Positions 3,775 to 64,000 of a stretch of DNA of 64,000 nucleotides are shown piece by piece. The notes beneath the pieces were generated by a model, which did no database searches, was not told the origin of the DNA, and saw only the letters and a program-made list of their open reading frames with translations. Within the stretch, counting starts at the first letter, position 1, and the number at the start of each line of letters is the position of its first letter. A program made the position numbers and the translations under genes. Location of the stretch: NCBI GenBank assembly GCA_963820525.1, contig CAWGAA010000001.1, forward strand, positions 704,001 to 768,000, written 5' to 3'. This stretch comes from an uncultured Spirochaetota bacterium. GTDB lineage: Bacteria; Spirochaetota; Spirochaetia; SZUA-6; Fen-1364.

Positions 3775-4339
3775 AGTCTCCTACGGGGAGAAACCCCCTC
3801 GTCTTTAGACGAAGACTTTAGTAGGCTTGCGGTACGATGAAGCAGTATCGAAAAGCGTCGCACTGCGTCTATGATTTGAAGTATCATATAGTGTGGATCA
3901 CCAAGTACCGCAAGCCAGTGTGGGGGAAAGAGATAGGAACCCGCGTAAGAGATCTGATACGAATGATTTGCGCGAGCCTGGACGTAGAGATCGTGAAAGG
4001 GAACATCAGCCGCGATCACGTGCATCTGCTGCTGAGCGTGCCGCCGACTCTATCGGTATCCAGGCTCGTGCAGCGCATGAAGGGGCTGACATCACGGAAG
4101 CTGCTCATGGAAAACAAAGGGTTGAACAAAACATTCTGGGGCAGGCATCTTTGGGCCCGCGGGTATTTCGTGGCGAGCACAGGGAACGTGACCGAAGAGA
4201 TGATCGCCCGCTACATCGAGAATCAGCAGGACACAGAGCGGGACCAAGATGCCGACTTCAAAGTAGAACCGTGATGTCGGCCCCAGTCGGCTTTAGCCGA
4301 CAAGCGCAAACCCCCCGACTTAAGTCGGGGGTGGTTTAG
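3775..4339 (+). mobile_element. IS200-like element (tnpA only) in a family A cassette
   Basis: Interrupts TTAG|AAATGAAG relative to the intact twin at 908. Subterminal hairpins TCGTCT-TT-AGACGA and CCCCCGACT-TA-AGTCGGGGG. Confidence 0.9.
3837..4274 (+). CDS. tnpA: IS200/IS605 Y1 (HUH) transposase
   Basis: YHIVWITKYR, DHVHLL (HUH), LWARGYF, RYIENQ. Confidence 0.95.
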   Translation: MKQYRKASHCVYDLKYHIVWITKYRKPVWGKEIGTRVRDLIRMICASLDVEIVKGNISRDHVHLLLSVPPTLSVSRLVQRMKGLTSRKLLMENKGLNKTFWGRHLWARGYFVASTGNVTEEMIARYIENQQDTERDQDADFKVEP

Positions 4340-4700
4340 AAATGAAGTAAAGAATTATTAATTCAATGATCTTTGATAAGACGTTTTTCAATAGCTTGTT
4401 TGCACATGATGGCGTTGGCATTGCTCTGGAAGGATGGCGATGTTGTACTACATTGCCTGCTTGTCTTTAGTTTCAATGCATGGCACGCCACCTTGGCTTA
4501 TTATCACCGATTACATTCTACGGCTTAGATCAAGCTCTTTCAAATGATTCGCTAGATCTTTTCTGCTTTCCTCAACGCCATCATACTGGATGGAGATAAC
4601 ATGTCGTTGCAGCTGACCGCCCAAGTTACGCGTCGTCACTTGAAACTACGCGTTCTCAGGTATTTCATTTTCTTGAGGCGGGGCGGCAGCTGAACTCCTT

Positions 4701-5020
4701 GTTACATCCACGCTAATAATTTCTTTGAGAGAATATTTTGCCTGTTCTGTTTTGAATTATTCAAAGCAAATAAAGAATTCGATTTAGCAATCTTGCAGGT
4801 TTTACTTTGGTGAATTCCTCTGATACTTTTGCGCGGGCCATGTAAGTTCCCATTGGAACAGCTCGCGCCCATTAGCTGAAAGGGCATTATCAACTTTTAA
4901 CATCATTTTCTTTCGCTATGCCCGAATTCTATCATCAATCAACTAACCTTATATTTTCTTCATATCGTGAAGCTTCTTTGCTGGCCCGCGCATATTGTTC
5001 TGTTTCCGCGTAGATGTAAC
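4701..5020 (+). other. Family B gene-less cassette, representative copy
   Basis: TGCGCGGGCCA 4830-4840, GCTCGCGC 4861-4868, TGGCCCGCGCA 4982-4992, and inner hairpin GTTCC-CATT-GGAAC. Confidence 0.9.
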
Positions 5021-6698
5021 ATGCGGTTGGAGCAGACCGCTTGGACTGCTCGTCGTTACTGATTCTTCCTCGTGTTAAATCAAATGAACCTATATGATGC
5101 GGCGCGGCTGCTCAACCGCGTCGTTATCTCCATCTAGATTTATATTGATTAGCAAATAAGCAACGAATTATCAATTCAAGAATATTTGATAAGACGTTTT
5201 TCAATATTTTGCTTTCCCATGATGGCGTTGGCATTGGGCGGGAAGGATGGCGGTGTTGTACTAGTTTGCCTGCTTGTTTTTAGGTTCAACACACTGCGCG
5301 TCACCTTGGCTTATTGTCACCGATTACACTATTGGGCTCGGATCAAGCTCCTTTAATTGATTCGATTGCTCTTTTTCTGCTTTCCTCAACGCCATCATAC
5401 CGGATGGAGATAACATGTCGTTGCAGCTGACCGCCCAAGCTACGCGCCGTTATTCGAAACTACGCGCGCTCAGGTATTTCCTCTTTTTGAGGCGGGGCGG
5501 CAGCTGAACTCCTTGTTATATCCAACCAGATTCATATTGATTAGTAATGATTTAAGAATCTTTAAATCAATAATCTTGGATAAGACGTTTTTCAATTAAT
5601 GGCTGTTACATGATGGCGTTGGCATTGTTCTGGAAGGATGGCGGTGTTGTACTACATTTGGTTGCTTTTTTTAGTTTCAATGTATAGCACGTCACCTTGG
5701 CCTATTGTCACCGATTACATTATAAGGCCCTGATCAAGTCATTTTGATTGATACGATGAATCTTCTTCTGCTTTCCTACAACGCCATCATACTTGGTGGA
5801 TATAACATGCTGTTGGAGTTGTCCGCCTTGGCTACGCTTCTTTACAAATAACTACGCACGGTAAAGCCGATTGTACTTGGATGATTCGGGGCGGCAACTC
5901 AACAGCGTCGTTATATCCAACCAGATTCATATTGATTAGCAATGATTTAAGGAATCCTTAATTCAATAATCTTGGATAAGATGTTTTTCAATTGATTGCT
6001 TTCCCATGATGGCGTTGGCATTGTTCTGGAAGGATGGCGGTGTTGTACTACATTTGGTTTCTTATTTTTAGTTTCAAAGTATGGCACGTCACCTTGGCTT
6101 ATTATCACCGATTACATTATAAGGCTCTGATCAAGTCATTTCGATTGATACGATGAATCTTCTTCTGCTTTCCTACAACGCCATCATACTTGGTGGATAT
6201 AACATGCTGTTGGAGTTGTCCGCCTAGGCTACGCTTCGTTACAAATAACTACGCACGGTAAAGCCGATTGTACTTGGATGATTCGGGGCGGCAACTCAAC
6301 AGCGTCGTTATCTCCATCTAGATTTATATTGATTAGCAAACAAGCAACGAATTATTAATTCAAGAATATTGGAGAAGACGTTTTTCAATAGCTTGCTTTC
6401 CCATGATGGCGTTGGCATTGGGCGGGAAGGATGGCTGTGTTGTACTAGTTTGCCTGCTTGTTTTTAGGTTCAATACTCTGCTCGTCACCTTTGCTTATTG
6501 TCACCGATTACATTATAGGGCTCGTATCAAGCTCTTTTAATTGATTCGATTACTCTTTTTCTGCTTTCCTCAACGCCATCATACTGGATGGAGATAACAT
6601 GTCGTTGCAGCTGACCGCCCAAGCTACGCGCCTTCACTTGAAACTACGCGCGCTCAGGTATTTCCTTTTTTTGAGTCGGGGCGGCAGCTGAACTCCTC

Positions 6699-7036
6699 GT
6701 TATATTCACGCATATTGAAGATTCTTAGATAATTTCAGTATTAGTTCCCTGTATACGTATGCTTGAGTATTGCTATCATAAAGGGCTTTTTTCCTATTTG
6801 AGTAATGTTGTGAGATTCACCTCTTTCATTTCTTTTCTTTCCTTTGCGCGGGCCCTGGTAGTCACTAGGTCAAAGCTCGCGCCACTCTTTTGGTAGCCTC
6901 TCTTACCTTTTAACCTTGTTTTCTTTCGTTCAAGGTTGAAGTCTAGATTCAACCTGTTGCGGTCAGCTTTTTTCACTCTCTTATAGTTCTCTGCATCGGC
7001 CCGCGCTAGTCTCTTATGTTTCCGCGTAAATATAAC
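6699..7036 (+). other. Divergent family-B-like gene-less cassette
   Basis: Body barely alignable to family B, but keeps GCGCGGGC 6846-6853, GCTCGCGC 6875-6882, GGCCCGCGC 6998-7006 and the TGTTTCCGCGTA..TAAC end. Confidence 0.85.
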
Positions 7037-7184
7037 AAGTCGTTGCAGCTGACCGCCTAGGCTACGCGTCGTTAGAAATAACTACGCTCGTTCAAGTATT
7101 TTTTCTTTCTTGATTCGGGGCGGCAGCTGAACTCCATGTTGGATGGCGCTTCGACAACAGGCCTTCTTGCGGTAGACTGATGCC

Positions 7185-8034: not shown

Positions 8035-9066
8035 GTATCAACAGAGCGGCCTTTCGGAGATGCGCCATCCAACAAGTCGTTGCAGCTGACGCCTAAGATT
8101 TCGTCTGAAAGATACAGCTCTGTTTCATAGAACCGTCGGGGCTGTGGTGACTCGGCGGCGCAGCTGAACTCTATGTTATATCCATCTAGATTTATATTGA
8201 TTAGCAAATAATCAACGAATTATTAATTCAAGAATAGAAGATAAGACGCCTTTCAATAGCTTGCTTGCCCATTATGGCGTTGGCATTGTTCTGCAAGGAT
8301 AGCGGTGTTGTACTACATTGGTTGCTTGTCTTTAGTTTCAATTTATGGCACGTCACCTTGGCTAATTGTCACCGATTACATTCAACGGCTCGGATCAAGC
8401 TCTTTTAATTGATTCGATAGATCTTTTCTGCTTTCCTCAACGCCATCATACTGGATGGATATAACATGCTGTTGGAGTTGACCGCCTAGGCTACGCTTCG
8501 TTACTAATAACTACGCTAGCTGAAGTATTTGTACTTGGCTGATTCGGGGCGGCAACTCAACAGCGTCGTTACATCCACGCTAATAATTTCTTTGAGAGAA
8601 TATTTTGCCTATTCTGTTTTGAATTATTCAAAGCAAATAAAGAATTCGATTTAACAATCTTGCAGGTTTTACTTTGTTGAATTCCTCTGATACTTTTGCG
8701 CGGGCCATGTAAGTTCCCATTGGAACAGCTCGCGCCCATTAGCTGAAAGGGCATTATCAACTTTTAACATCATTTTCTTTAGCTATGCCCGAATTCTATC
8801 ATCAATCAACTAACCTTATATTTTCTTCATATCGTGAAGCTTCTTTGCTGGCCCGCGCATATTGTTCTGTTTCCGCGTAGATGTAACATGCGGTTGGAGC
8901 AGACCGCTTGGACTGCTAGTCGTTACTGATTCTTCCTCGTGTTAAATCAAATGAACCTATATGATGCGGCGCGGCTGCTCAACCGCGTCGTTATGCATAC
9001 TTGAAAACTACTATAGGTGCTTTTATTTACACTATAGGTTGGCTTGAGGTATTGGAGGAACCGACA

Positions 9067-9804: not shown

Positions 9805-11967
9805 AGTTAAGAGCAAATCGAAAGTATGCATAACAAGTCGTTGAAGCCGACCCCTTAAATTGCGTGTGGAGAGTGGGGCCTACGCTCCGTAAAAACGGCC
9901 AAGGCTGATTTTATTCGGCGGGGCGGCTTAACTCCATGTTATCTCCATCTAGATTTATATTGATTAGCAAATAAGCAACCAATTATTAATTCAAGAATAT
10001 TGGATAGGACGTTTTTCAATAGCATGCTTCCCCATGATGGCGTTGGCATTGGGCGGGAAGGATGGCTGTGTTGTACTAGTTTGCCTGCTTGTTTTTAGGT
10101 TCAATACACTGCGCGTCACCTTGGCTTATTGTCACCGATTACATTATAGGGCTCGGATTAAGCTCTTTTAATTGATTCGATTGCTCTTTTTCTGTTTTCC
10201 TCAACGCCATCATACTGGATGGAGATAACATGTCGTTGCAGCTGACCGCCCAAGCTACGCGCCTTCACTTGAAACTACGCGCGCTCAGGTATTTCCTTTT
10301 GTTGAGTCGGGGCGGCAGCTGAACTCCTCGTTATATCCATCTAGAATTATATTGATTAGTGAAGAAGCATCGGATTATTAATTCGATAATAATAAAATAC
10401 GTTTTTCAATTGCCTGTTTGCCTATGATGGCGTTGGCATTGCTCTGGAAGGATGGCGGTGTTGTACTACATTGCTTGCTTGTCTTTAGTTTCAAGGCATG
10501 GCACGTCACCTTGGCATATGTCACCGATTACATTCTACGGCTCGGATCAAGCTCTTTCAATTGATTCGATAGGTCTTTTCTGTTTTCCTCAACGCCATCA
10601 TACTGGATGGATATAACATGTCGTTGCAGCTGACCGCCCATGCTACGCGTCGTCACTTGAAATTACGCGTGCTCAAGTATTTCCTTTTGTTGAGTCGGGG
10701 CGGCAGCTGAACTCATTGTTATATCCATCTAGATTTATATTGATTAGCAAATAATCAACGAATTATTAATTCAAGAATAGAAGATAAGACGCCTTTCAAT
10801 AGCTTGCTTGCCCATTATGGCGTTGGCATTGTTCTGCAAGGATAGCGGTGTTGTACTACATTGGTTGCTTGTCTTTAGTTTCAATTTATGGCACGTCACC
10901 TTGGCTAATTGTCACCGATTACATTCAACGGCTCGGATCAAGCTCTTTTAATTGATTCGATAGATCTTTTCTGCTTTCCTCAACGCCATCATACTGGATG
11001 GATATAACATGCTGTTGGAGTTGACCGCCTAGGCTACGCTTCGTTACTAATAACTACGCTAGCTGAAGTATTTGTACTTGGCTGATTCGGGGCGGCAACT
11101 CAACAGCGTCGTTACATCCACGCTAATAATTTCTTTGAGAGAATATTTTGCCTATTCTGTTTTGAATTATTCAAAGCAAATAAAGAATTCGATTTAACAA
11201 TCTTGCAGGTTTTACTTTGTTGAATTCCTCTGATACTTTTGCGCGGGCCATGTAAGTTCCCATTGGAACAGCTCGCGCCCATTAGCTGAAAGGGCATTAT
11301 CAACTTTTAACATCATTTTCTTTAGCTATGCCCGAATTCTATCATCAATCAACTAACCTTATATTTTCTTCATATCGTGAAGCTTCTTTGCTGGCCCGCG
11401 CATATTGTTCTGTTTCCGCGTAGATGTAACATGCGGTTGGAGCAGACCGCTTGGACTGCTAGTCGTTACTGATTCTTCCTCGTGTTAAATCAAATGAACC
11501 TATATGATGCGGCGCGGCTGCTCAACCGCGTCGTTATATCCATCTAGAATTATATTGATTAGTGAAGAAGCATCGGATTATTAATTCGATAATAATAAAA
11601 TACGTTTTTCAATTGCCTGTTTGCCTATGATGGCGTTGGCATTGCTCTGGAAGGATGGCGGTGTTGTACTACATTGCTTGCTTGTCTTTAGTTTCAAGGC
11701 ATGGCACGTCACCTTGGCATATGTCACCGATTACATTCTACGGCTCGGATCAAGCTCTTTCAATTGATTCGATAGGTCTTTTCTGTTTTCCTCAACGCCA
11801 TCATACTGGATGGATATAACATGTCGTTGCAGCTGACCGCCCATGCTACGCGTCGTCACTTGAAATTACGCGTGCTCAAGTATTTCCTTTTGTTGAGTCG
11901 GGGCGGCAGCTGAACTCATTGTTGGATGGCGCTTCGACAACAGGCCTTCTTGCGGTAGACTGATGCC

Positions 11968-12956: not shown

Positions 12957-13128
12957 GTTAGGCGCAAGCATATTTGCTTATCAAGATATCTCTTTGATTG
13001 GAAAAAGGATTTTGCATAAGAAGACGTGGATAGGAGATATCAAAGAACGCGGGCCTTTCTGGCTTGCCCCTAGTAATCAGTAGATGCTACCACTCGCGTT
13101 CAGTCGGCCCGCTATGCTTCCGCCTAAC
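12957..13128 (+). other. Short (172 bp) gene-less cassette with the family-B motif triad
   Basis: GAACGCGGG 13045-13053, CTCGCGTTC 13093-13101, GGCCCGC 13106-13112; bounded by attC sites. Confidence 0.8.
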
Positions 13129-13278
13129 ATTTCGTTGCAGCTGACCGCCCAAGCTACGCGTCGTTACCGCAAACTACGCTCACTTACGGATTTGTTTATT
13201 CTCATGCGGGGCGGCAGCTGAACTCTGTGTTAGATGGCTTTTCTTTATTGTATTTAATTTCAACAATAGGATACATCC

Positions 13279-14403: not shown

Positions 14404-16265
14404 GCCATCTAACATGCTGTTGGAGTTGACCCCTTAGGCTACGTTTGGAAAGTACAGCATATGTTGCTAAACCGCTGCTACCCTGCTTCGGGCGGTGGGG
14501 CAACTCAACAGCGTCGTTACATGCAACGCTAAGAAATATCTTATTGAAGATTCCATATGGCTGCTTAGGATTACTCAAGATAAATGAAGACTATTCGATT
14601 CAGCTGCATATGCTACCTTGTTGAATTCTTGTCTTACTTTTGCGCGGGCCATGTAAGTTCCTATTGGAACAGCTCGCGCCCATTAGCTGAAAGGGCATTA
14701 TTAACCTTTCCTGCATCATTTTCTTTCGCTTTGCCTGAATTCTATCATCAATCAACTAACCTTAGATTTCCTTCATATCTTGAAGCTTCTTTGTTGGCCC
14801 GCGCATATTGTTCTGTTTCCGCGTAGATGTAACATTCGGTTGGAGCAGACCGCTTAGCCTACGCTTCGTTACTTATTCCTACGTGTGTTAAAGCAATTGT
14901 ACCTGTATTATGCGGCGCGGCTGCTCAACCGGGCGTTATATCCAATCAGATTTATGGTGATTAGCAATGAATTAAAGAATTATTAATTCAATAATATTTG
15001 ATAAGAGGTTTTTCAATAACTTGCTTTCCCATGATGGCGTTGTCATTGCTCTGGAAGATTGGCGGTGTTGTACTACATTTCCTGCTTATTGCTAGCTTCA
15101 ATACACTGCACGTCACCTTGGCGTATTATCACCGATTACATTCAACGACTCGGATCAAGTTCATTTAATTGATTCGATAGCATTTTTTCTGCTTTCCTCA
15201 ACGCCATCATACTGGATGGATATAACATGCTGTTGGAGTTGTCCGCCTAGGTTACGCGTCGCTACTGATAGCTACGCGCGTTGAAGTTCTTGTACTTGGA
15301 TGATTCGGGGCGGCAACTCAACAGCGTCGTTATATCCACGCTAAAGAAATTCTTTGTGAGAATATTTTGCTTCTTCTGTTTTGAATTACTCAAAGCAAAT
15401 GAAGAATTCTCTTTCACAATCTTGCGGGTTTTACCTTGTTGAATTCTTTTGATACCTGTGCGCGGGCCATCTACGTTCCTGTTGGAACAGCTCGCGCATG
15501 TTAGCCAAAGGGGCATTAATTACCTTTTTTAGCATCACTTTCTTTCGCTTTTCCTGAATTCTATCATCAATCAACTAACCTGATATTTTATCCATATCGT
15601 GAAGCTTGTCCTTCGGCCCGCGCATATTGGTCTGTTTCCGCGTAGATATAACATGCTGTTGGAGTTGACCGCCTAGGCTACGCTTCATTACCAATAGCTA
15701 CGGGCGGTAAAGCATTTTGTACTTGGATGATTCGGGGCGGCAACTCAACAGCGTCGTTATATCCATCTTGATTTATATTGATTAGTGAAGAAGCATAGGA
15801 TTATTAATTCGATAATAATAAAAGACGTTTTTCAATTGCCTATTTGCCTATGATGGCGTTGACATTGCTCTGTAAGGATGGCGGTGTTGTACTACATTGC
15901 TTGCTTTTCTTTAGTTTCAATACATGGCACGTCACCTCGGCTTGCCAACACCGATTGCATTCAACGGCTCGGATCAAGCTCCTTCAATTGATTCGATAGA
16001 TCTTTTCTGCTATCCTCAACGCCATCATACTGGATGGATATAACATGCTGTTGGAGTTGTCCGCCTAGGCTACGCGTCGTTACCAATAGCTACGCGCATT
16101 GAAGTCTTGGTACTTGGATGATTCGGGGCGGCAACTCAACAGCGTCGTTATGTCTCTCTATTTTTGGATAACGGGCGCTGTAAGGTATACTCACTGGCAG
16201 CATCCCAGATTACCACTTGCAGAACATCAGTCGTGGTGGTAAGTTTATATTGAAAGGAGAGATCT

Positions 16266-20707: not shown

Positions 20708-21721
20708 GCGCGTAACATGCTGTTGGAGTTGACCCCTAGAATCTTAGTTTGAACTGCTACTTCCCTCTCGGACTCTACTGTAGCTTGTCCCTTCGGGCGG
20801 CGGGGCAACTCAACAGCGTCGTTACATGCAACGCTAAGAAATATCTTATTGAAGATTCCATATGGCTGCTTAGGATTACTCAAGATAAATGAAGACTATT
20901 CGATTCAGCTGCATATGCTACCTTGTTGAATTCTTGTCTTACTTTTGCGCGGGCCATGTAAGTTCCTATTGGAACAGCTCGCGCCCATTAGCTGAAAGGG
21001 CATTATTAACCTTTCCTGCATCATTTTCTTTCGCTTTGCCTGAATTCTATCATCAATCAACTAACCTTAGATTTCCTTCATATCTTGAAGCTTCTTTGTT
21101 GGCCCGCGCATATTGTTCTGTTTCCGCGTAGATGTAACATTCGGTTGGAGCAGACCGCTTAGCCTACGCTTCGTTACTTATTCCTACGTGTGTTAAAGCA
21201 ATTGTACCTGTATTATGCGGCGCGGCTGCTCAACCGGGCGTTACATTCAACGCTAAGAATTCTTTTGTAGGAAGATTCCCTTTGTTTTTCTATTATAACT
21301 CAAGATAAATGAAGACTATTCAATTTAGCTATATTGCATATTTTACCTCGTTGAATTCTTGTCTTACTTTTACGCGGGCCATGTAAGTTCCCATTGGAAC
21401 AGCTCGCGCTCATTAGCTGAAAGGGCGTTATTAACCTTTCTGGAATCGTATTCTTTCGCTATTGGTTGAATTCTATCATCAATCAATCAACCTTGTATTT
21501 CGTTCATATCTTAGACTTCTCTGTTGGCCCGCGCATATTGTTTTGTTTCCGCGTGGATGTAACATTCGGTTGGAGCAGACCGCTTGGGCTACGCATCGTT
21601 ACTAATTGCTACGCTTGCTAAAATAATTGTACCTAGATGATTCGGCGCGGCTGCTCAACCGTGCGTTAGGTGGCTATATGCATTTCGATAGAGGGCTTGG
21701 TCAATTCGGCCTTGTGCCGTT

Positions 21722-22204: not shown

Positions 22205-23966
22205 AACTATTTTGGAAGAGCAGACTGATTCTGATAGAAACCATTTTGAATCGTGATGGACGATAATGCACAAGCAGTTAGACTTGGAAAAGGTCAGAGC
22301 GTTTAAAACTAAAGGCATGCAGATTTTGAGCAAAATAGGTATTGCTTTGGATGCAATTCCCGTGGGAGCCCTGTTCTCATCATTAGATCATTAAGCCTTG
22401 GAATTTCTTTAGCATGCTCGAAGGGCACCAATGCTTTTGCTATATCGAAAAGAAAGCCACCTAACAAGTCGCTGCAGTTGACCCCTTAGAGGCCGGTTAA
22501 ATCGGAACATGCAGTTCCAAAGTCCGTGCAGCGCTGGCTTGATGCGGCGGGGCAACTGAGCTCAATGTTATATCCAATCTAGATTTATATTGATTATCGA
22601 ATAGGCAACGAATTATTAATTCAATAAAAAGAGATAATACGTGTTTCAATAGCTTGTTTAACCATGATGGCGTTGGCATTTCTCTGGAAGGATGGCGGTG
22701 TTGTACTAATGTTGCTTGCTTGCTCTTAGTTTCAATACACTGCACGTCACCGTGGCTTAATGGTCAACGATTTCATTATAGGGCTCGGATCAAGCTCTTT
22801 CGATTGATTCGATAGATCTTTTTCTGTTTTCCTCAACGCCATCATACTGGATGGATATAACATGCTGTTGGAGTTGTCCGCCTAGGCTACGCGTCGTGAC
22901 AAAAAGCTACGCGCGGCAAAGCCTTTTGTACTTGGATTATTCGGGGCGGCAACTCAACAGCGTCGTTATATCCACGCTAAAGAAATTCTTTGTGAGAATA
23001 TTTTGCTTCTTCTGTTTTGAATTACTCAAAGCAAATGAAGAATTCTCTTTCACAATCTTGCGGGTTTTACCTTGTTGAATTCTTTTGATACCTGTGCGCG
23101 GGCCATCTACGTTCCTGTTGGAACAGCTCGCGCATGTTAGCAAAAGGGGCATTAATTACCTTTTTTAGCATCACTTTCTTTCGCTTTTCCTGAATTCTAT
23201 CATCAATCAACTAACCTGATATTTTATCCATATCGTGAAGCTTGTCCTTCGGCCCGCGCATATTGGTCTGTTTCCGCGTAGATATAACATGCTGTTGGAG
23301 TTGACCGCCTAGGCTACGCTTCATTACCAATAGCTACGGGCGGTAAAGCATTTTGTACTTGGATGATTCGGGGCGGCAACTCAACAGCGTCGTTATATCC
23401 ATCTAGATTTATATTGATTAGCAAATAAGCAACGAATTATTAATTCAAGAATAGAATATAAGAAGCTTTTCAATAGCTTTATTTCCCATGATGGCGTTGG
23501 CATTGTTCTGGAAGGATGGTGGTGTTGTACTAGTTTGCCTGCTTGTTTTTAGTTTCAAGGCATGGCGCGTCACCTTGCCTTATTATCACCGATTACATTC
23601 TACGGCTCAGATCAAGCTCTTTCAATTGATTCGATAGATCTTTTCTGCCTTCCTCAACGCCATCATACTGGATGGACATAACATGCGGTTGGAGTTGACC
23701 GCCCAGGCTACGCTCCGTGACTTATTGTTATGCGCGCTAGAGTCTTTTGTTCTTGGATGATTCGGGGCGGCAACTCAACAGCGTCGTTAGCTCCCCTCTG
23801 AAATGCACTTTATTTATTTTCCTTAATGATTTTTCATATTAATGGCTTTCAAACATAATGTGGGCTATGTTATTCGTATTGCAGTAGTCCTTTCTATTCC
23901 CGTCCTAATTTATGTTTGACAAATTGGTATTATTTGTCAACATTTTACTAATGTAAGGAGAGAACA

Positions 23967-26458: not shown

Positions 26459-27193
26459 GATCTGAGACACGCATAACAAGTCGTTGAAGCCGACGCCTTA
26501 ACTTCAGACTGTTTCGTAGAGACTTCTTCCGCAATGCTTCACAAGGTCTGATTCGGCGGCGCGGCTTAACTCTATGTTATCTCCATCTAGATTTATAGTG
26601 ATTAGCAAATAAGCAACGAATTATTAATTCAAGAATATTGGATAAGACGTTTTTTAATAGCTTGCTTTCCCATGATGGCGTTGGCATTGAGCGGGAAGGA
26701 TGGCTGTGTTGTACTAGTTTGCCTGCTTGTTTTTAGGTTCAATACACTGCTCGTCACCTTGGCTTATTGTCACCGATTACATTATAGGGCTCGGATCAAG
26801 CTCTTTTAATTGATTCGATTGCTCTTTTTCTGTTTTCCTCAACGCCATCATACTGGATGGAGATAACATGTCGTTGCAGCTGACCGCCCAAGCTACGCGC
26901 CTTTACTTGAAACTACGCGTGCTCAGGTATTTCCTTTTCTTGAGGCGGGGCGGCAGCTGAACTCCTCGTTATATCCACGCTAAAGAAATTCTTTGGGAGA
27001 ATGTTCTGCTTCTTCTGTTTTGAATTACTCAAAGCAAATTAAGAATTCTATTTCGCAATCTTGCAGGTTTTACCTTGTTGAATTCTTCTGATACCTTTGC
27101 GCGGGCGTAACCGTCAAATAAACCCCACCTTGCGGCCGGCATAAAAAGCCGCGATCCTGAGCCCACTCAATTCAGGGAATCAGGAGGCCGTAG

Positions 27194-27535
27194 ATGGAGT
27201 CAAGACAGGAGAATCGAAAACAACCACGCAGAAACGCAGAGAAATGGAGCGAGCTCATCACCGCGTGGCGATCAAGCGGGAAGACGAGAAAGGCATGGTG
27301 CCAGGAACAAGGGATACCCTACGAATCCCTGAGGCGATGGGTGAAGCGATTGCGCGGCTCCGCCGACGGATTGTCATTTGTAGGAATCCGCGACACATCC
27401 CAAGCCCTGGATGCTGCGGAGCAGGCGCGCGTGAGAGTAAGCAGAGATGGAGATATTGAACTGTATGGAAACATCGGCGAGGAGCTTCTGCGCAGAGTGC
27501 TGCGCGTGATGCGGGAGACGGCTGATGTTCATTGA
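27194..27535 (+). CDS. tnpA: IS66 accessory protein TnpA
   Basis: W...WRSSGKTRKAWC...LRRW HTH; first ORF of the element. Confidence 0.85.
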   Translation: MESRQENRKQPRRNAEKWSELITAWRSSGKTRKAWCQEQGIPYESLRRWVKRLRGSADGLSFVGIRDTSQALDAAEQARVRVSRDGDIELYGNIGEELLRRVLRVMRETADVH

Positions 27536-27872
27536 ATGGAGCAACGTCAAGATATTTGTTCGTCCGGGCGCGACGGATTTGAGAAAACAGATAAACGGAC
27601 TGGCCATCCTGGTACAGACGGCGATGGGCAAAGATCCGCTTTCCGGACACCTCTACCTTTTCAGCAATCATGAGAAACGTCTCCTGAAGGTCCTGTACTG
27701 GGATCGAAACGGGTTCTGCATGTGGCAGAAAAGGCTGGAGCGGGATCGCTTCCCCTGGCCAAGAACGGAAGAGGCAGCGCGGGAGATCAGCTTGGAGCAG
27801 CTTCGGATGCTGCTTTCGGGAATCGACTTCTGGAACGCGCACCAGAGCCTCGCGTATACCGCGGTCGTATAA
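27525..27872 (+). CDS. tnpB: IS66 accessory protein TnpB
   Basis: TDLRKQINGL...LKVLYWDRNGFCMWQKRLE..RFPWP. Confidence 0.93.
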   Translation: MFIEWSNVKIFVRPGATDLRKQINGLAILVQTAMGKDPLSGHLYLFSNHEKRLLKVLYWDRNGFCMWQKRLERDRFPWPRTEEAAREISLEQLRMLLSGIDFWNAHQSLAYTAVV

Positions 27873-27911
27873 AAACATCTAGATTTTAAGGCCCCATCAT
27901 GGTATTCTCAT

Positions 27912-31615: not shown

Positions 31616-32190
31616 CATGCTGTTGGAGCAGACCGCTTAAGCTACGCTTCGTTACCAATGACTACGCGCGGCAAAGCCTATTGTATTTAGCTGATGCGGC
31701 GCGGCTGCTCAACAGCGTCGTTACATCCACGCTAATAATTTCTTTGATAGAATATTTTGCCTGTTCTGTTTTGAATTATTCAAAGCAAATAAAGAATTCG
31801 ATTTAGCAATCTTGCAGGTTTTACTTTGGTGAATTCCTCTGATACTTTTGCGCGGGCCATGTAAGTTCCCATTGGAACAGCTCGCGCCCATTAGCTGAAA
31901 GGGCATCATCAACTTTTAACATCATTTTCTTTCGCTATGCCCGAATTCTATCATCAATCAATTAACCTTATATTTTCTTCATATCGTGAAGCTTCTTTGC
32001 TGTCCCGCGCATATTGTTCTGTTTCCGCGTAGATGTAACATGCGGTTGGAGCAGACCGCTTGAACTACGCATCGTTACTTATAGCTACGCGTGTTAAAAC
32101 CAATTGTACCTGGATGATGCGGCGCGGCTGCTCAACCGCGTCGTTAGGCTTTTTCAAGGCTATTCTATCAAATTTAAGAAGGAGGTTTTT

Positions 32191-35075: not shown

Positions 35076-36066
35076 ATATCAAAATACGCATAACATGCTG
35101 TTGGAGTTGACCGCCTAGGCTACGCGTCGTGACTGATAGCTATGCGCGCTTAAGTCTTTGTACTTGGATGATTCGGGGCGGCAACTCAACAGCGTCGTTA
35201 CATCCACGCTAATAATTTCTTTGAGAGAATATTTTGCCTGTTCTGTTTTGAATTATTCAAAGCAAATAAAGAATTCGATTTAGCAATCTTGCAGGTTTTA
35301 CTTTGGTGAATTCCTCTGATACTTTTGCGCGGGCCATGTAAGTTCCCATTGGAACAGCTCGCGCTCATTAGCTGAAAGGGCGTTATTAACCTTTCTGGAA
35401 TCGTATTCTTTCGCTATTGGTTGAATTCTATCATCAATCAACTAACCTTATATTTTTTTCATATCGTGAAGCTTCTTTGCTGGCCCGCGCATATTGTTCT
35501 GTTTCCGCGTAGATGTAACATGCGGTTGGAGCAGACCGCTTTGACTACGCATCGTTACTGATAGCTACGCGTGTTAAAACCAATTGTACCTTGATGATGC
35601 GGCGCGGCTGCTCAACCGCGTCGTTACATCCAACGCTAAGAAATATCTTATTGAAGATTCCATATGGCTGCTTAGGATTACTCAAGATAAATGAAGACTA
35701 TTCGATTCAGCTGCATATGCTACCTTGTTGAATTCTTGTCTTACTTTTGCGCGGGCCATGTAAGTTCCTATTGGAACAGCTCTCGCCCATTAGCTGAAAG
35801 GGCATTATTAACCTTTCCTGCATCATTTTCTTTCGCTTTGCCTGAATTCTATCATCAATCAACTAACCTTAGATTTCCTTCATATCTTGAAGCTTCTTTG
35901 TTGGCCCGCGCATATTGTTCTGTTTCCGCGTAGATGTAACATTCGGTTGGAGCAGACCGCTTAGCCTACGCTTCGTTACTTATTCCTACGTGTGTTAAAG
36001 CAATTGTACCTGTATTATGCGGAGCGGCTGCTCAACCGGGCGTTATGCGGCTTTAAGGGGCAATAA

Positions 36067-36687: not shown

Positions 36688-39366
36688 TATTCTTTGTACT
36701 ATTTATCAAGCATATAGTAGCCGCATAACATGCTGTTGGAGTTGACCGCCTAGGCTACGCTTCGTCACCAATAACGACGCGCGCTAAAGCCTTTGTACTT
36801 GGATGATTCGGGGCGGCAACTCAACAGCGTCGTTACATTCAACGCTAAGATAGATCTTTTGGAATATTCCCTATATTCTGCGTAGAATCACTCAAGATAA
36901 AGAAGACTATACGATTTAGCTTTATATGTTACTTTGTCGAATTCTTGTTTTACTTTTGCGCGGGCCATGTAAGTTCCCATTGGAACAGCTCGCGCTCATT
37001 AGCTTAAAGGGCATTATTACCTTTTAAAATCCTTTTATTTCACTATTGCTTGAATTCTATCTTCAATCAACCAACCTTGTATTTTGTTCCTATCTTAGAC
37101 TTCTCTGTCGGCCCGCGCATATTGTTCTGTTTCCGCGTAAATGTAACAAGTCGTTGCAGCTGACCGCCTGGGCTACGCGTCGTTACAAATAATTACGCGT
37201 GCTGTAGCATATACACTTTTCCTGATTCGGGGCGGCAGCTGAACTCCATGTTACATTCAACGCTAAGAATTTGTAGGAAGATTCCCTTTGTTTTTCTATT
37301 ATAACTCAAGATAAATGAAGACTATTCAATTTAGCTATATTGCATATTTTACCTCGTTGAATTCTTGTCTTACTTTTGCGCGGGCCATGTAAGTTCCCAT
37401 TGGAACAGCTCGCGCTCATTAGCTGAAAGGGCGTTATTAACCTTTCTGGAATCGTATTCTTTCGCTATTGGTTGAATTCTATCATCAATCAATCAACCTT
37501 GTATTTCGTTCATATCTTAGACTTCTCTGTTGGCCCGCGCATATTGTTCTGTTTCCGCGTAGATGTAACATTCGGTTGGAGCAGACCGCTTAGCCTACGC
37601 TTCGTTACTTATTCCTAGGTGTGTTAAAGCAATTGTACCTGTATTATGCGGCACGGCTGCTCAACCGGGCGTTACATCCACGCTAATAATTTCTTTGAGA
37701 GAATATTTTGCCTGTTCTGTTTTGAATTATTCAAAGCAAATAAAGAATTCGATTTAGCAATCTTGCAGGTTTTACTTTGGTGAATTCCTCTGATACTTTT
37801 GCGCGGGCCATGTAAGTTCCCATTGGAACAGCTCGCGCCCATTAGCTTAAAGGGCATTATTAACCTTTTTAGAATCGTATTCTTTCGCTATTGGTTGAAT
37901 TCTATCATCAATCAACTAACCTTGTATTTCATTCATATCTTAGACTTCTCTGTTGGCCCGCGCATATTGTTTTGTTTCCGCGTAAATGTAACATTCGGTT
38001 GGAGCAGACCGCTTAGCCTACGCGTCGTTACTGATTGTTACGCTTGCTAAAATAATTGTACCTGGATGATGCGGCGCGGCTGCTCAACCGTGCGTTACAT
38101 TCAACGCTAAGAATTCTTTTATAGGAAGATTCCCTTTGTTTTTCTATTATAACTCAAGATAGATGAAGACTATTTAATTTAGCTATATTGCATATTTTAC
38201 CTCGTTGAATTCTTGTCTTACTTTTGCGCGGGCCATGTAAGTTCCCATTGGAACAGCTCGCGCTCATTAGCTGAAAGGGCGTTATTAACCTTTCTGGAAT
38301 CTTATTCTTTCGCTATTGGTTGAATTCTATCATCAATCAATCAACCTTGTATTTCGTTCATATCTTAGACTTCTCTGTTGGCCCGCGCATATTGTTTTGT
38401 TTCCGCGTAAATGTAACATTCGGTTGGAGCAGACCGCTTGGGCTACGCATCGTTACTAATTGCTACGCTTGCTAAAATAATTGTACCTAGATGATTCGGC
38501 GCGGCTGCTCAACCGTGCGTTATATCCAATCTAGATTTATATTGATTATCGAATAGGCAACGAATTAGTAATTCAATAAAAAGAGATAATACGTGTTTCA
38601 ATAGCTTGTTTAACCATGATGGCGTTGGCATTGCTCTGGAAGGATGGCGGTGTTGTACTAATGTTGCTTGCTTGCTCTTAGTTTCAATACACTGCACGTC
38701 ACCGTGGCTTAATGGTCAACGATTTCATTATAGGGCTCGGATCAAGCTCTTTCTCTTGAAACAACAACTCTTTTCTGTTGTCCTCAACGCCATCATACTG
38801 GATGGATATAACATGCTGTTGGAGTTGTCCGCCTAGGCTACGCGTCGTTACTTATAGCTACGTTTGCTAGGGTTCCTTCGGTTGCTGATTCGGGGCGGCA
38901 ACTCAACAGCGTCGTTATATCCGATCAAATTTATGGTGATTAGCAATGAATTAAATAATTATTAATTCAATAATATTGGAGAAGAGGTTTTTCAATAACT
39001 TGCTTTTCCATGATGGCGTTGTCATTTCTCTGGAAGATTGGCGGTGTTGTACTACATTTCCTGCTTATTGCTAGCTTCAATACCCTGCACGTCACCTTGG
39101 CGTATTATCACCGATTACATTCAACGGCTCGGATCAAGTTCATTTTATTGATTCGATAGCATTTTTTCTGCTTTCCTCAACGCCATCATACTTGATGGAT
39201 ATAACATGCTGTTGGAGTTGTCCGCCTAGGCTACGCGTCGTGACTTATAGCTACGCGCTGTAAAGCCTTTGTACTTGGATGAATCGGGGCGGCAACTCAA
39301 CAGCGTCGTTATCTCCATCTAAAATTATGCTTATTAGCAATGAAACAATGAATTATACATAGCGTC

Positions 39367-42033: not shown

Positions 42034-43035
42034 CTAGCAGAATGCCATGAAGTCGATGATCATAGCGGGATTCCTGTGAACGACGGATTTCGTCTTGCAG
42101 TCCAAGGATGATAGTGGGGGCATCCGCGATAATCAGTTGTTTCATTCCTATATAAAATCACATTATGCAATTATGCGCAATTACTTAAGACGCTCTGTAT
42201 AATAATTCAATAATATAGGATAAGACGTTTTTCAATTTCATGTTTGCCCATGATGGCGTTGGCATTGCTCTGGAAGGATGGCGGTGTTGTACTACATTGC
42301 CTGCTTGTCTTTAATTTCAATGCATGGCACGTCACCTTGGCTTATTATCACCGATTACATTCTACGGCTCGGATCAAGCTCTTTCAATTGATTCGATAGA
42401 TCTTTTCTGCTTTCCTCAACGCCATCATACTGGATGGAGATAACATGTCGTTGCAGCTGACCGCCCAAGCTACGCGTCGTTACCGTAAACTACGCTCACT
42501 CAAGCATTTGTTTATTCTTATGCGGGGCGGCAGCTGAACTCATCGTTACATCCACGCTAATAATTTCTTTGAGAGAATATTTTGCCTGTTCTGTTTTGAA
42601 TTATTCAAAGCAAATAAAGAATTCTATTTAGCAATCTTGCAGGTTTTACTTTGGTGAATTCCTCTGATACTTTTGCGCGGGCCATGTAAGTTCCCATTGG
42701 AACAGCTCGCGCCCATTAGCTGAAAGGGTATCATCAACTTTTAACATCATTTTCTTTCGCTATGCCCGAATTCTATCATCAATCAATTAACCTTATATTT
42801 TCTTTATATCGTGAAGCTTCTTTGCTGGCCCGCGCATATTGTTCTGTTTCCGCGTAGATGTAACATGCTGTTGGAGTTGTCCGCCTAGGCTACGCGTCGT
42901 TACTGATAGCTACGCGTGTTGAAGTATTTGTACTTAGATGATTCGGGGCGGCAACTCAACAGCGTCGTTACACGGCTCTAAAAAACTATATTTACAGAAG
43001 TATCTCATTCTCTGCAATAAGAGGATTAAGCAAAC

Positions 43036-43761: not shown

Positions 43762-44470
43762 CATGCTGTTGGAGTTGACCGCCTAGGCTACGCTTCGTCA
43801 CTGATAGCTACGCTCATTGGAGCCTTTGTACTTGGATGATTCGGGGCGGCAACTCAACAGCGTCGTTACATCCACGCTAATAATTTCTTTGAGAGAATAT
43901 TTTGCCTATTCTGTTTTGAATTATTCAAAGCAAATAAAGAATTCGATTTAGCAATCTTGCAGGTTTTACTTTGTTGAATTCCTCTGATACTTTTGCGCGG
44001 GCCATGTAAGTTCCCATTGGAACAGCTTGCGCCCATTAGCTGAAAGGGCATCATCAACTTTTAACATCATTTTCTTTCGCTATGCCCGAATTCTATCATC
44101 AATCAACTAACCTTATATTTTCTTCATATCGTGAAGCTTCTTTGCTGGCCCGCGCATATTGTTCTGTTTCCGCGTAGATGTAACATGCGGTTGGAGCAGA
44201 CCGCTTGGACTACGCGTCGTTACTGATTGCTACGCAAGTTAAAGTAATTGTACCTGTATGATACGGCGCGGCTGCTCAACCGCGTCGTTAGACGCTTAAA
44301 AGTAAAGGCGCCAAGTATCAGCAGACCGGACAGGTAGTTTCTTTTCAGCGGACGAATTGGCTCGCTAAGATTCCGATCATCCGAGGCTTTAGCTTATGAT
44401 GCCTGAGTAGAGGGCATAGCCTTATGGCTGAACTATGGATTGAGGAACGTTTTTGGCGTAGGATCCAACC

Positions 44471-53706: not shown

Positions 53707-54320
53707 TAGCTGGATACAATGATAGAAAAAAAGAGCGGGATAACAAGTCGTTGCAGTTGACCGCCTGGGTTCAGCCTTTCACGGAGGAACGACGTCCGTC
53801 GAACTGGCGCATAATCATCTGATTCGGGGCGGCAACTGAACTCTATGTTATATCCACGCTAAAGAAATTCTTTGTGAGAATATTTTGCTTCTTCTGTTTT
53901 GAATTACTCAAAGCAAATGAAGAATTCTCTTTCACAATCTTGCGGGTTTTACCTTGTTGAATTCTTTTGATACCTGTGCGCGGGCCATCTACGTTCCTGT
54001 TGGAACAGCTCGCGCATGTTAGCAAAAGGGGCATTAATTACCTTTTTTAGCATCACTTTCTTTCGCTTTTCCTGAATTCTATCATCAATCAACTAACCTG
54101 ATATTTTATCCATATCGTGAAGCTTGTCCTTCGGCCCGCGCATATTGGTCTGTTTCCACGTAGATATAACATGCTGTTGGAGTTGACCGCCTAGGCTACG
54201 CTTCATTACCAATAGCTACGGGCGGTAAAGCATTTTGTACTTGGATGATTCGGGGCGGCAACTCAACAGCGTCGTTATGACGCCCAAATTTTCAGTAGCT
54301 TGAATTGCTAATCTGATGAC

Positions 54321-61131: not shown

Positions 61132-61629
61132 ATGACTATAATTTATCAGTATTCATAATTTTAAAACAAAGGAAAACGTATAACATGCTGTTGGAGCAGA
61201 CCGCTTAAGCTACGCGTCGTGACTTATTACTACGCGTGCTAAATTAATTGTTCCTGGTTGATGCGGCGCGGCTGCTCAACTCATTGTTACATCCACGCTA
61301 ATAATTTCTTTGAGAGAATATTTTGCCTGTTCTGTTTTGAATTATTCAAAGCAAATAAAGAATTCTATTTAGCAATCTTGCAGGTTTTACTTTGGTGAAT
61401 TCCTCTGATACTTTTGCTCGGGCCATGTAAGTTCCCATTGGAACAGCTCGCGCCCATTAGCTGAAAGGGCATCATCAACTTTTAACATCATTTTCTTTCG
61501 CTATGCCCGAATTCTATCATCAATCAATTAACCTTATATTTTCTTTATATCGTGAAGCTTCTTTGCTGGCCCGCGCATATTGTTCTGTTTCCGCGTAGAT
61601 GTAACATGCTGTTGGAGTTGACCGCCTAG

Positions 61630-63371
61630 CCCGCATTTCTCACAAACGGCACTCTGCGCAGTCTAATCATCATGAGGCGGGGCTCAACTTTGAAAAACGG
61701 TCTATTCCTTGCTGTCAGCCCCTACACGTAGATCGATTTCGTGACCCGAGTCAGTTCAATCGCCCGATTGAGCGCACTTTACAGTTCATAAGGGAAGATT
61801 CGGCGACTTCAGGACAGTCTTCTCCCAATAAACTACTCAAGACAAGGCTCAATACACGCTAACCCGATTGAAGGGAGAGTTCGTGAATACTCAGAATCAC
61901 CTGACGGAAAAGCTCTTGATATGGATAACCGCTTGCGAAGCTCACATAGATCCGGCGCACACTGACGCGCACCTGTGCGCCAATCTTCAATAGCTTCAAA
62001 CGAATCGTGTCGCACTGTGCCGAGGCCAGCTCTGTCCCCTTCAAAGCGGTCCTTCTGAGGGCACTCATGATTACGTAGGCCGCAGAGGAGAACCACAACC
62101 GAAGCTGATTCGCCCTCATCGTGGCGGAACTGGTTCGATCTGCAAAAAGGTAAAGCTGCTGTTCTTTGATACGATTCTCCATGTCTCCGCGAGCACAATA
62201 GAGCTGCTCGTACAGCTGCTGGCCAGGGAAGCGGTCCTGCATAAGTGAAGTCACCACAAACCGAGGGTTCTCTCCCTTGCGCAGATACTCCGCCTTGGCG
62301 ACAACACGTCTGCTTTTCGACCATGTCTTTTTCGTCCGATAGATCAGCTCCGCGTACTTTCGCGACGGCTCACCAGTGGACAGATACTGCCTGCGGGCTT
62401 CTGAAAGCTCCTTGCGGATCTTGCGTAAGAGGCGTGCGTTTTTCGCGATTCCGAACAGGAAATCCACGTCGTTGGACTCGCACCACACCATGATCGCTTC
62501 CCGGCAGAACCCGCTGTCGGCCCGCACAACAATACGTACCTGCGGCCATCGCTCACGGATCTGCGCAACGATCCTCGCCAACTCCTTCTCGGCACCCGAA
62601 CATGCGTCTATATTGGAGGGACGTAGCTTCGCACATAAAAGATGATCCCCGCAGAAGATGTACAACGGCAGGTAGCAATAACAATCATAATAGCCATGAA
62701 AGAACCTGCCCTCTTGATTGCCGTGCAGAGGGTCGTCGGTTGCATCCAGATCCAACACGATTTCTTCAGGAGCTTGCTCATAACTGGCCAGGAATGTGTT
62801 CACCAGGAACATCCCAACCATTGTTTCGTTCACCGTGATTTTCTTGTATCGATGCGTAGAGAGGCTTGCCCCGCCGGCGGTCTCAAGCCGATTCAGCGTG
62901 CTTTTTCCGGCAAGGGCTTTGCCTCTGTCCCGTTTCTGCCTCCTCGTTTCCCCGTTGACATCGAGTTTCCCGCAAACGGCAGCCAGAACGGGATCTTTGC
63001 GCAGCTGGTCGTGATCGTTGAGGTCTTCGTATCCCAGGCAAATGCCGAATACCCTTTGGCTTATCAATTGCTCGATGGAATGCTCGATATAGCCTTTCTC
63101 TCGATAGTCTGTGAAACAGCCCGCGAATGCTTTGATGATGCCTGTGGCGCGTTCGACCTCTCGAAGAATGAGAGCGCCGGCATCGGAACTGATCGCGCCT
63201 CCGTCGAAGTTTCCGACTACCTTTTTCTTGCCAAGGTCTTGAAAGCTAAACAGGGATGGTGTACAGTCTGTTTGCATCGTATAGCCTTTCTGTTCTGGTT
63301 TATTTTGTTTGTTGCAAAGCAATTATACCAGAGCGAAAGGCTTTTTCATATCCATTTGTGAGAAATGCGGG
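61630..63371 (-). mobile_element. Second IS1380 family element, inserted inside an attC site
   Basis: 17-bp TIR CCCGCATTTCTCACAAA; CTAG TSD at 61626-29 and 63372-75 within ACCGCCTAGGCTACG. Confidence 0.94.
61859..63277 (-). CDS. IS1380 family transposase
   Basis: FDGGAISSDAG, LDLDATDD, RADSGF, YCARGDMENRIKEQQ; related to, but distinct from, 40400-41815. Confidence 0.93.
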   Translation of the reverse strand: MQTDCTPSLFSFQDLGKKKVVGNFDGGAISSDAGALILREVERATGIIKAFAGCFTDYREKGYIEHSIEQLISQRVFGICLGYEDLNDHDQLRKDPVLAAVCGKLDVNGETRRQKRDRGKALAGKSTLNRLETAGGASLSTHRYKKITVNETMVGMFLVNTFLASYEQAPEEIVLDLDATDDPLHGNQEGRFFHGYYDCYCYLPLYIFCGDHLLCAKLRPSNIDACSGAEKELARIVAQIRERWPQVRIVVRADSGFCREAIMVWCESNDVDFLFGIAKNARLLRKIRKELSEARRQYLSTGEPSRKYAELIYRTKKTWSKSRRVVAKAEYLRKGENPRFVVTSLMQDRFPGQQLYEQLYCARGDMENRIKEQQLYLFADRTSSATMRANQLRLWFSSAAYVIMSALRRTALKGTELASAQCDTIRLKLLKIGAQVRVSVRRIYVSFASGYPYQELFRQVILSIHELSLQSG

Positions 63372-64000
63372 CTAGGCTACGCGTCGTTACTGATAGCTAC
63401 GCGTGTTGAAGTATTTGTACTTAGATGATTCGGGGCGGCAACTCAACAGCGTCGTTATCTCCATCTCAATTTATCTTGATTAGAAATGAAGTAAAGAATT
63501 ATTAATTCAATGATCTTTGATAAGACGTTTTTCAATAGCTTGTTTGCACATGATGGCGTTGGCATTGCTCTGGAAGGATGGCGATGTTGTACTACATTGC
63601 CTGCTTGTCTTTAGTTTCAATGCATGGCACGCCACCTTGGCTTATTATCACCGATTACATTCTACGGCTTAGATCAAGCTCTTTCAAATGATTCGCTAGA
63701 TCTTTTCTGCTTTCCTCAACGCCATCATACTGGATGGAGATAACATGTCGTTGCAGCTGACCGCCCAAGTTACGCGTCGTCACTTGAAACTACGCGTTCT
63801 CAGGTATTTCATTTTCTTGAGGCGGGGCGGCAGCTGAACTCCTTGTTATATCCAATCAAATTTATGATGATTAGAAATGATGTAAAGAATTATAATTCAA
63901 TAATATTGGATAGGAGGTTTTTCAATAGATTGCTTTCCCATGATGGCGTTGACATTGCTCTGGAAGGATGGCGGTGTTGTACTACTTTTCATGCTTGTCT

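Follow-up and report, generated by a model that had tools for sequence, protein, structure and literature searches.

Paralogous families of non-coding cassettes are known from the integrons of Vibrio vulnificus, where two strains hold 45 and 34 copies and up to 49% of the cassettes are non-coding; these Vibrio paralogues have no homologues outside their lineage, and purifying selection or gene conversion has been proposed for them (PMC1382264). Excision of cassettes is governed by the folding probability of the attC site (Loot et al. 2017, PMC5371416), and a trans-acting, integron-encoded small RNA (sRNA), sRNA-Xcc1, has been described in Xanthomonas campestris (Chen et al. 2011, cited in PMC8876359). 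According to a 2013 paper, integrons in the phylum Spirochaetota were known from Treponema alone (PMC3607928). Here we describe a repeat, Family B, found in a 64,000-nucleotide (nt) stretch of DNA from an uncultured Spirochaetota bacterium with a genome of 5.05 Mb (C1:704001-768000, where C1 is contig CAWGAA010000001.1; this whole stretch is called the window). A sequence-only reading of one copy at window positions 4701-5020 had proposed a two-state structured element, in which one arm pairs with either of two mutually exclusive partners, and had missed the integron-cassette context of the repeat unit. We are nearly certain that Family B makes up the non-coding cargo of a small, mobile cassette of a sedentary chromosomal integron, whose integrase has produced at least 34 copies of it, 41 with the sister families B2 and B3 included. 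Family B is a new family of a known type, the amplified gene-less integron cassette, as in Vibrio and Treponema.

The integron is located in a low-GC island (C1 ~682-832 kb, ~43% GC) within a genome of 60% GC. An open reading frame (ORF) of 411 amino acids (aa) on the minus strand at the left edge of the island (C1:682089-683324) scored 410 bits against TIGR02249 (cut-off 265), identifying it as an integron integrase. Its gene is low in GC, like the island, and divergent from the array, as in classical integrons; the closest integrases are those of Spirochaetia metagenome-assembled genomes (MAGs), at 57-58% identity. The island looks old or foreign. The integron (C1:682089-832000) is very large, with a cassette array of ~140 kb to the right of the integrase, at least 163 cassette intervals and, depending on the search pattern, 164-171 attC (R') ends in a single orientation; attC sites were identified by sequence reading and folding. 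When the array was written as a string of 163 intervals in total, 56 were Family A cassettes (~391 bp), 31 were intact Family B cassettes, 3 were B2 and 1 was B3, 5 were long intervals with a B or B2 core (at least 2 of them with an insertion sequence (IS)), and 67 were other long intervals. The gene-less cassettes, which occupy ~59% of the intervals, are interspersed with gene cassettes.

Each Family B copy is the ~300-nt cargo of a cassette of 418-427 bp, and the bounding attC sites are ~115 nt long. The parts of the focal cassette are as follows, in window coordinates.

4702..5123, + strand: focal Family B cassette (422 bp), whose first letter is the T that follows the upstream crossover G4701 and whose last is the crossover G5123, where the focal R' begins
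4702..4713, + strand: 5' end of the cassette, TTACATCCACGC, the distal part of the upstream R' box, which pairs with 5008-5019
4714..4829, + strand: fast-diverging 5' cargo segment, with five subtypes
4830..4840, + strand: Box1, TGCGCGGGCCA, the 5' arm of both proposed helices
4846..4859, + strand: inner hairpin GTTCC-NNNN-GGAAC with a variable loop
4861..4868, + strand: Box2, GCTCGCGC, the local partner of Box1 (8 bp with one G-T)
4925..4966, + strand: 42-nt G-less tract, the first part of which, GAATTCTATCATCAATCAA, is nearly invariant among B subtypes
4982..4992, + strand: Box3, TGGCCCGCGCA, the long-range partner of Box1 (11 bp, perfect)
5008..5020, + strand: R'' box with its extension, GCGTAGATGTAAC
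5016..5123, + strand: focal attC, comprising R'' GTAAC (5016-5020), the L'' arm, a variable centre, the L' arm and the crossover G

The element delimited by the sequence-only reading therefore stands as to its core, but both of its ends (4702-4713 and 5008-5020) belong to the attC stem. The first 12 nt of the focal cassette pair with 5008-5019, with compensatory CG/UA changes at two pairs, and in the RNAalifold alignment this end stem is the only one among the proposed or expected helices that has compensatory changes in several sequences. Pairing of a cassette's own ends is general in the array: gene-carrying cassettes had 11.5/16 matches between their own ends versus 8.0/16 with the start of the next cassette. 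In all array cassettes the first 12-13 nt are complementary to the 12-13 nt that end in the cassette's own R'' core, a complementarity much longer than the classical 7-bp core site and different from family to family. Because the own-end stem is family-specific, an in-array attC between unlike cassettes would have shorter R stems than an excised circle. A test of strand preference by wobble type in the end stems gave 27 versus 23. As a separate observation, adjoining the integrase on a Spirochaetia MAG chromosome (L024:5600-9900) there is a ~578-bp family in tandem beside attI, with internal repeats and self-complementary cassette ends, GTTATATAC and GTATATAAC.

Duplicate copies mark the mobile unit. 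Identity started at most 5 nt from the upstream G|TT in 6/9 pairs and ended at most 4 nt from the next crossover G in 8/9 pairs, with differences directly outside. As duplicates are identical between crossover points, the family moves as cassettes, and Family B has the marks of an integron cassette: it lies in an integrase-adjacent array, is bounded by attC and is a discrete mobile unit. In metagenome contigs of two DNA runs (X4 and X5), position 5120 is followed, after a single C, by 4701, as it would be in a B-B tandem or equally in a circle. A miniature inverted-repeat transposable element was rejected, since the units occur on the + strand and in the array only and no direct repeat flanks Box1 and Box3. 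We also considered the cargo as a relic attC, for which 19/27 identities were counted by eye, but local alignment scored as shuffles did (19 versus 16.3 +/- 2.3).

No reading frame is open in all Family B subtypes. A 63-aa minus-strand ORF of the commonest subtype is interrupted by stops in three other subtypes; its translations, read by eye, share only about half of their residues at a DNA identity of 84%, and protein searches returned no homologue and no NCBIfam match. The longest ORF in intact copies (<=427 bp, including attC read-through, on either strand) ranged from 37 to 83 aa by copy. Two limits have been used for gene-less cassettes, 150 bp (Boucher 2006) and 210 bp (Blanco 2024): most of the longest ORFs fall below 210 bp, which the TATT-loop copies (80 aa) and the copy at 37672 (83 aa) exceed, and most are above 150 bp. 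Coding cargo was ruled out by the unconserved frames, the stops and the indels, which are of 1, 2, 4 and 5 nt between subtypes. With no kept frame and no protein match, the cassettes are gene-less.

Family B resembles the Vibrio paralogous cassettes (PMC1382264) in being gene-less, in carrying its own attC, in its high copy number in one array (34 here) and in being conserved over its full length. In both cases homologues are lacking beyond the close lineage and the share of the array is large (up to 49% there, ~59% of intervals here). It differs from them in phylum, in having no sequence similarity to them, in three GC-rich boxes that persist across three diverged sister families, and in the presence of a second unrelated family (A) with an invariant inverted repeat beside attC, of which we found no description for Vibrio in the part of that paper available. 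The exact inner-hairpin pattern was absent from 185,579 species genomes and from JGI metagenomes. Searches with blastn gave 0/40 in relatives and, in 400 genomes of the phylum, 6 short AT-rich matches (E 2e-4 to 9e-4) that we read as chance, and an nhmmer profile found nothing below E = 1 in 80 integrase-related loci. The triple-box pattern had 1 chance match, in GC-rich DNA, in 80 integron loci, and at least 120 loci in metagenome contigs (31/64 parts), where all matches listed are of >=66% GC, none is family-like and the matches were read as chance. Pieces of Family B itself were present in metagenome contigs of four DNA runs (X1, X4, X5 and X7) from three studies, with no new core variant among the differences listed; for the 9.9-kb stretch queried, the listing of runs contained none of RNA.

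Within the cargo, the core was as the sequence-only reading had described it. GCGCGGGC (4831-4838) can pair with GCTCGCGC over 8 bp with one G-T on the + strand, the hairpin GTTCC-CATT-GGAAC is present at 4846-4859, and Box1 and Box3 are perfect 11-nt reverse complements. The 21 copies counted in the window are all on the + strand, versus 0.02 expected (two-arm pattern with up to 2 mismatches, 100 shuffles), and their loops vary as reported (CATT 14, TGTT 4, TATT 3). Genome-wide there are 34 copies, all on the + strand of C1 between 692445 and 795609, with loops CATT 24, TGTT 7 and TATT 3. The contrast between a constant core and a divergent 5' third was borne out among the five subtypes: mean pairwise identity was 0.53-0.70 over most of the 5' third (~0.8 at 4757-4776) and 0.91-0.93 over 4824-4873. 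Common substitutions avoid the stems, and none of the 4 core positions with a minor letter in at least 7/34 copies is paired in the local hairpin. Variation also occurs at five stem positions, each in 1-3 of the 34 copies: at one, GC becomes GU in 3 copies whose cargo does not differ across the 313 nt compared, and at the other four the pair is broken. The long-range repeat is complete in 25/34 copies, the outer A-T pair is lost in 7, the repeat is mutated in 1, and one interrupted copy lacks its 3' arm in place.

The same boxes recur in two sister families, each with one cassette in the window.

6700..7138, + strand: B2 cassette with the same three boxes and the inner hairpin CCTGG-TAGTCA-CTAGG
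12958..13229, + strand: B3 cassette, short, with CGCGGGCC, CTCGCG and GGCCCGC in the same order

B2 has 6 copies in the genome, in which Box1, Box2 and Box3 are identical to those of B and the Box1-to-Box3 span is 163 nt as in B; its interior is ~40-60% identical to B, and its inner hairpin has a G-T on the + strand. B3 has 1 copy with a 165-nt cargo in which nothing is recognisably similar to B beyond the boxes and the attC-proximal end. Both keep the box order and the same G-T position. Among the AT-rich DNA of the genome the triple-box pattern occurs in the array only, never on the array minus strand, and Box1 and Box3 fall within two of the five most conserved 11-nt cargo windows of Family B. 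As judged from these comparisons, the three GC boxes are probably constrained; since they are kept in the diverged B2 and B3, the GC arms are more than a signal of shared ancestry.

Family A is unrelated to B. It is a gene-less cassette of ~391 bp with 56 copies, 41 of them distinct, at 518-908 of the window and at 55 other array sites. The two 11-nt windows that are best conserved in it, TGATGGCGTTG and CGCCATCATAC, are reverse complements of each other, and its 3' arm lies 1 nt from the R'' extension: the invariant CATGATGGCGTTGG, ~85 nt from the cassette start, pairs with the invariant CAACGCCATCAT, 1 nt before that extension. That two unrelated gene-less families have their best-kept inverted repeats beside attC points to a structural role; because there is no compensatory change at all, we infer this role rather than observe it. 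Separately, the Family A box holds ATG-ATG, and downstream 1-nt indels argue against a kept ORF; a strong promoter-like site in Family A, TTGAAA-17-TAGAAT, is found on the minus strand (4543..4515). An IS200/IS605-family TnpA gene (NF033573, 153 bits) occupies 3837-4274 of the window, and its element, which ends in a GC hairpin at ~4311-4335, truncates a Family A cassette.

The persistence of the boxes also bears on whether the cargo has a function. Family B could be a selfish or neutral passenger spread via a well-recombining attC, its conserved blocks reflecting recent copying, gene conversion and GC boxes that serve as module crossovers. The copies are often identical or almost identical (32 Family B copies comprise 24 distinct sequences), mosaic copies reveal exchange between subtypes, and the changes in the boxes are all single uncompensated hits, as such a passenger would have them; gene conversion was also raised for the Vibrio non-coding paralogues by Boucher et al. 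(PMC1382264). The boxes nevertheless persist in B2 and B3, whose flanking sequence offers little or no homology on which conversion could act, and the most conserved blocks are mutual reverse complements in two unrelated families, which neutral decay does not predict. Placement in the array looks random (B followed by a long cassette in 18 cases versus 15.1 expected in the array string, P = 0.17) and the family was not found outside this organism's populations in the collections searched, both of which agree with a passenger. On balance we regard a functionless cargo as rather unlikely.

The two proposed helices were examined in an alignment of 16 window copies and B2, and covariation was seen in neither. 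Four of the 8 pairs of the local helix are invariant, 1 changes from GC to GU and 3 break only, and the 11 pairs of the long-range helix comprise 7 that are invariant and 4 that break only. The lone 'both sides changed' cell of the inner hairpin comes from B2, whose hairpin is out of register. The consensus structure from RNAalifold comprises the inner hairpin, the end stem and the long-range helix; covariation contributes only -0.67 kcal/mol to it. In B, B2 and B3, and on both strands, the long-range fold outdid the local one, the margin being 5-14 kcal/mol for RNA and 0.4-6.3 kcal/mol for DNA; with either nucleic acid it is what the prediction ranks best for each strand. Taken as a whole, the cargo is hardly more stable than its shuffles (z -1.8 and -1.4). 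A further candidate, a covarying hairpin presenting TTCTTTCG, was not convincing, as its 5' arm shifts between subtypes and is absent from one.

These results argue against a balanced two-state element, given the unequal energies of the states as RNA, the lack of a conserved terminator and the lack of a fixed downstream gene. The proposal of a structured element is supported in that the GC arms are probably constrained beyond shared ancestry, and is not supported in that they would form a two-state switch. Family B is like two-state RNA leaders (riboswitch expression platforms, attenuators) in having one arm with two mutually exclusive partners. It departs from them in that covariation, a terminator, a constant gene downstream and an aptamer-like conserved core in common with other organisms are all lacking, and in that the energies are strongly unequal. 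As to a riboswitch-like RNA, we think not. The evidence behind the argument that the G-U pair favours a + strand RNA is an invariant G-T together with a single GC-to-GT change, and the argument holds equally for + strand DNA. In an integron, folding of single-stranded DNA is an equally natural setting for the helices.

A structured small RNA from the + strand, in which Box1 would pair with Box2 or Box3 in two states, was weighed in this light. The G-T of Box1:Box2, tolerated only on the + strand, is invariant and shared by B, B2 and B3, a single GC-to-GT change is found in 3 copies, and common substitutions are confined to loops; covariation is lacking, however, and the long-range state is more stable by the 5-14 kcal/mol given above. 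The 163-nt Box1-to-Box3 segments of B and B2 fold at z -3.6 and -3.8, values for segments whose ends were chosen to be complementary. A weak -35/extended -10-like motif would put a start at Box1; it was read by eye and was not flagged by the consensus scan, which found no sigma-70-type promoter and no intrinsic terminator conserved among B subtypes. There is a precedent in sRNA-Xcc1 (PMC8876359), which is likewise non-coding and comes from an ORF-less integron cassette; unlike it, Family B had no Rfam match and no target in a genome search. Rfam 15 gave 0 matches at gathering score in the window and chance-level matches only in a permissive search of 4300-5500 (E up to 10), and no tRNA genes were found. 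A trans-acting target was dropped as an idea because complementary matches in the genome were merely of 13-16 nt, as expected by chance. Nor does the array placement reveal a fixed downstream partner gene (P = 0.17, as above). Beyond one wobble pair, no positive evidence favours Family B as a switching RNA, and we hold the two-state RNA to be distinctly doubtful.

The cassettes could instead act as promoters or insulators, whose transcription starts or stops set the expression of neighbours far from the Pc promoter. Most of 29 tested gene-less Vibrio cassettes were active, mainly on the sense strand (PMC11014356), and Treponema ORF-less cassettes with promoter activity have been described (PMC6557892). 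Like these, the cassettes here are scattered in a long array, with the possibility of regulating their neighbours, and some of the described ones are themselves from a spirochaete (Treponema); the described cassettes measure 491-666 bp versus 418-427 bp here, and no consensus promoter is conserved here. The gene-less intervals scattered among gene cassettes and the AT-rich cargo are in line with such a role, but Family B is not enriched upstream of gene cassettes, and a promoter leaves the three conserved GC boxes unexplained. Promoter-like sites in B cassettes were fewer than in shuffles (1 versus 4.0 and 1 versus 3.0), none being conserved between subtypes, although TGATAGAAT in the invariant block, read by eye, resembles an extended -10 on the minus strand. 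According to Blanco et al. such promoters cannot be found in silico (PMC11014356); with prediction unreliable here, the negative promoter scan is weak. We judge this role to be unlikely. The 42-nt G-less tract of the + strand would presumably suit a Rho loading site, and we count it in favour of a promoter or insulator.

We tentatively favour a cis-acting fold, whose target would be the cassette itself as a unit of mobile DNA, a possibility that we put short of probable. On this view the cassette would contain a conserved helix whose arms are the GC boxes. With the cassette single-stranded, the prevailing fold would join Box1 to Box3 over 11 bp, and together with the 12-13-bp own-end pairing it would close the cargo into a compact unit beside the attC hairpin. 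Such a fold would work during the single-stranded steps of integron recombination and decide how far the cassette closes on itself and how far attC takes its recombinogenic form. This proposal shares with attC sites (PMC5371416) function through folded single-stranded DNA, cassette ends that covary as an R'/R'' stem, and folding probability as the controlling variable. Unlike attC, the three boxes are in the cargo, outside the R and L boxes and without the GTTRRRY core, and nothing points to integrase binding. Cargo helices are not mentioned in the part of the attC-folding study available (PMC5371416), and we found no description of such a helix in the titles and abstract openings listed by literature searches, which is not proof of absence. 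That the Box1:Box3 helix forms in vivo, in which molecule, and with what effect on recombination, we infer from the sequence comparisons and the folding models.

DNA folding was modelled on the bottom strand. In an excised circle the focal attC adopted the recombinogenic fold with P = 0.41. In a linear array (4590-5260, with Family A as the downstream neighbour) the own-end stem had P = 0.94 and the attC fold P = 1.5e-5; with Box1 blocked the own-end stem was at P = 0.93 and the attC fold rose ~200-fold to P = 3.2e-3. As a lead from this modelling, Box1:Box3 may tip the balance between the cassette-closing and attC folds only where neighbours are unlike.

Several points weigh against a cis-acting fold. 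Blocking Box1 in the excised circle leaves the attC fold at P = 0.41, and we rejected Box1:Box3 as a helper of attC folding in the circle, the effect in the model being zero. A Family A copy between A copies had attC P = 0.8 whether the box was blocked or not; this null result indicates that the modelled Box1 effect depends on neighbours. The folding figures are equilibrium nearest-neighbour values that ignore kinetics and proteins such as SSB (single-stranded DNA-binding protein). The 5' arm is 116 nt from the cassette start, so the helix cannot be taken simply as a continuation of the attC stem. The Box1:Box3 helix has no covariation, every arm change seen breaking a pair, and the 12-13-nt own-end pairing occurs in gene-carrying cassettes too and does not distinguish B. 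The proposal accounts neither for Box2, a weaker version of Box3, nor for the invariant G-less block. All of the comparative evidence comes from paralogues of one genome that recombine together.

The remaining Family B cassettes of the window are the following.

8569..8990, + strand: Family B
11112..11533, + strand: Family B
14517..14935, + strand: Family B, TATT-loop subtype
15330..15756, + strand: Family B, TGTT-loop subtype
20822..21240, + strand: Family B, TATT loop
21241..21665, + strand: Family B
22966..23392, + strand: Family B, TGTT loop
26969..29916, + strand: Family B, split by an IS66-family element (27107-29620)
31721..32143, + strand: Family B
35198..35623, + strand: Family B, mosaic of subtypes
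35624..36042, + strand: Family B, TATT loop, Box2 mutated
36833..38519, + strand: four Family B cassettes in tandem (36833, 37251, 37672, 38095)
42546..42967, + strand: Family B
43866..44287, + strand: Family B, Box2 GCTTGCGC, GC to GT
53848..54274, + strand: Family B, TGTT loop
59667..60088, + strand: Family B
61287..63454, + strand: Family B, attC interrupted by an insertion encoding a DDE transposase

The count of 21 cores given by the sequence-only reading is right, with the correction that the core at 29621 sits in the IS66-split copy. The element in that copy carries TnpB_IS66 and DDE_Tnp_IS66 by Pfam, and its 8-bp target duplication is the Box1 sequence GCGCGGGC itself (27099-27106 and 29621-29628). 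The transposase in the attC of the 61287 copy is of 487 aa (PF13701, 536 bits; 61859-63322, minus strand), and an ORF of the same size is found within the array at C1:696489-699228. Beyond the window, a Family B copy at C1:771300-772480 has a ~1.1-kb insertion ~30 nt past Box2, and its 3' part resumes at ~C1:772480.

Large chromosomal integrons are thought of as gene banks, and here more than half of the slots are held by two families of empty cassettes. What appears in raw sequence to be a switching RNA can be the body of a mobile cassette, and the three sister families provide a clean set of natural variants for bench testing. If promoters or RNAs are what these cassettes carry, the cassettes would set which stored genes are expressed. 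If instead the conserved inverted repeats adjust how recombination sites fold, control over mobility would reside in the cassettes themselves, which bears on the growth and stability of arrays. In its widest form, which we think quite unlikely, the gene-less cassettes of this array would each carry a dedicated cassette-closing helix (Box1:Box3 in B, the invariant 12-bp repeat abutting R'' in A) that controls the form of the flanking attC. Such a helix, if real, would be a cis-encoded regulator of the excision and re-insertion of its own cassette and would help to explain why over half of a large array is taken up by empty cassettes.

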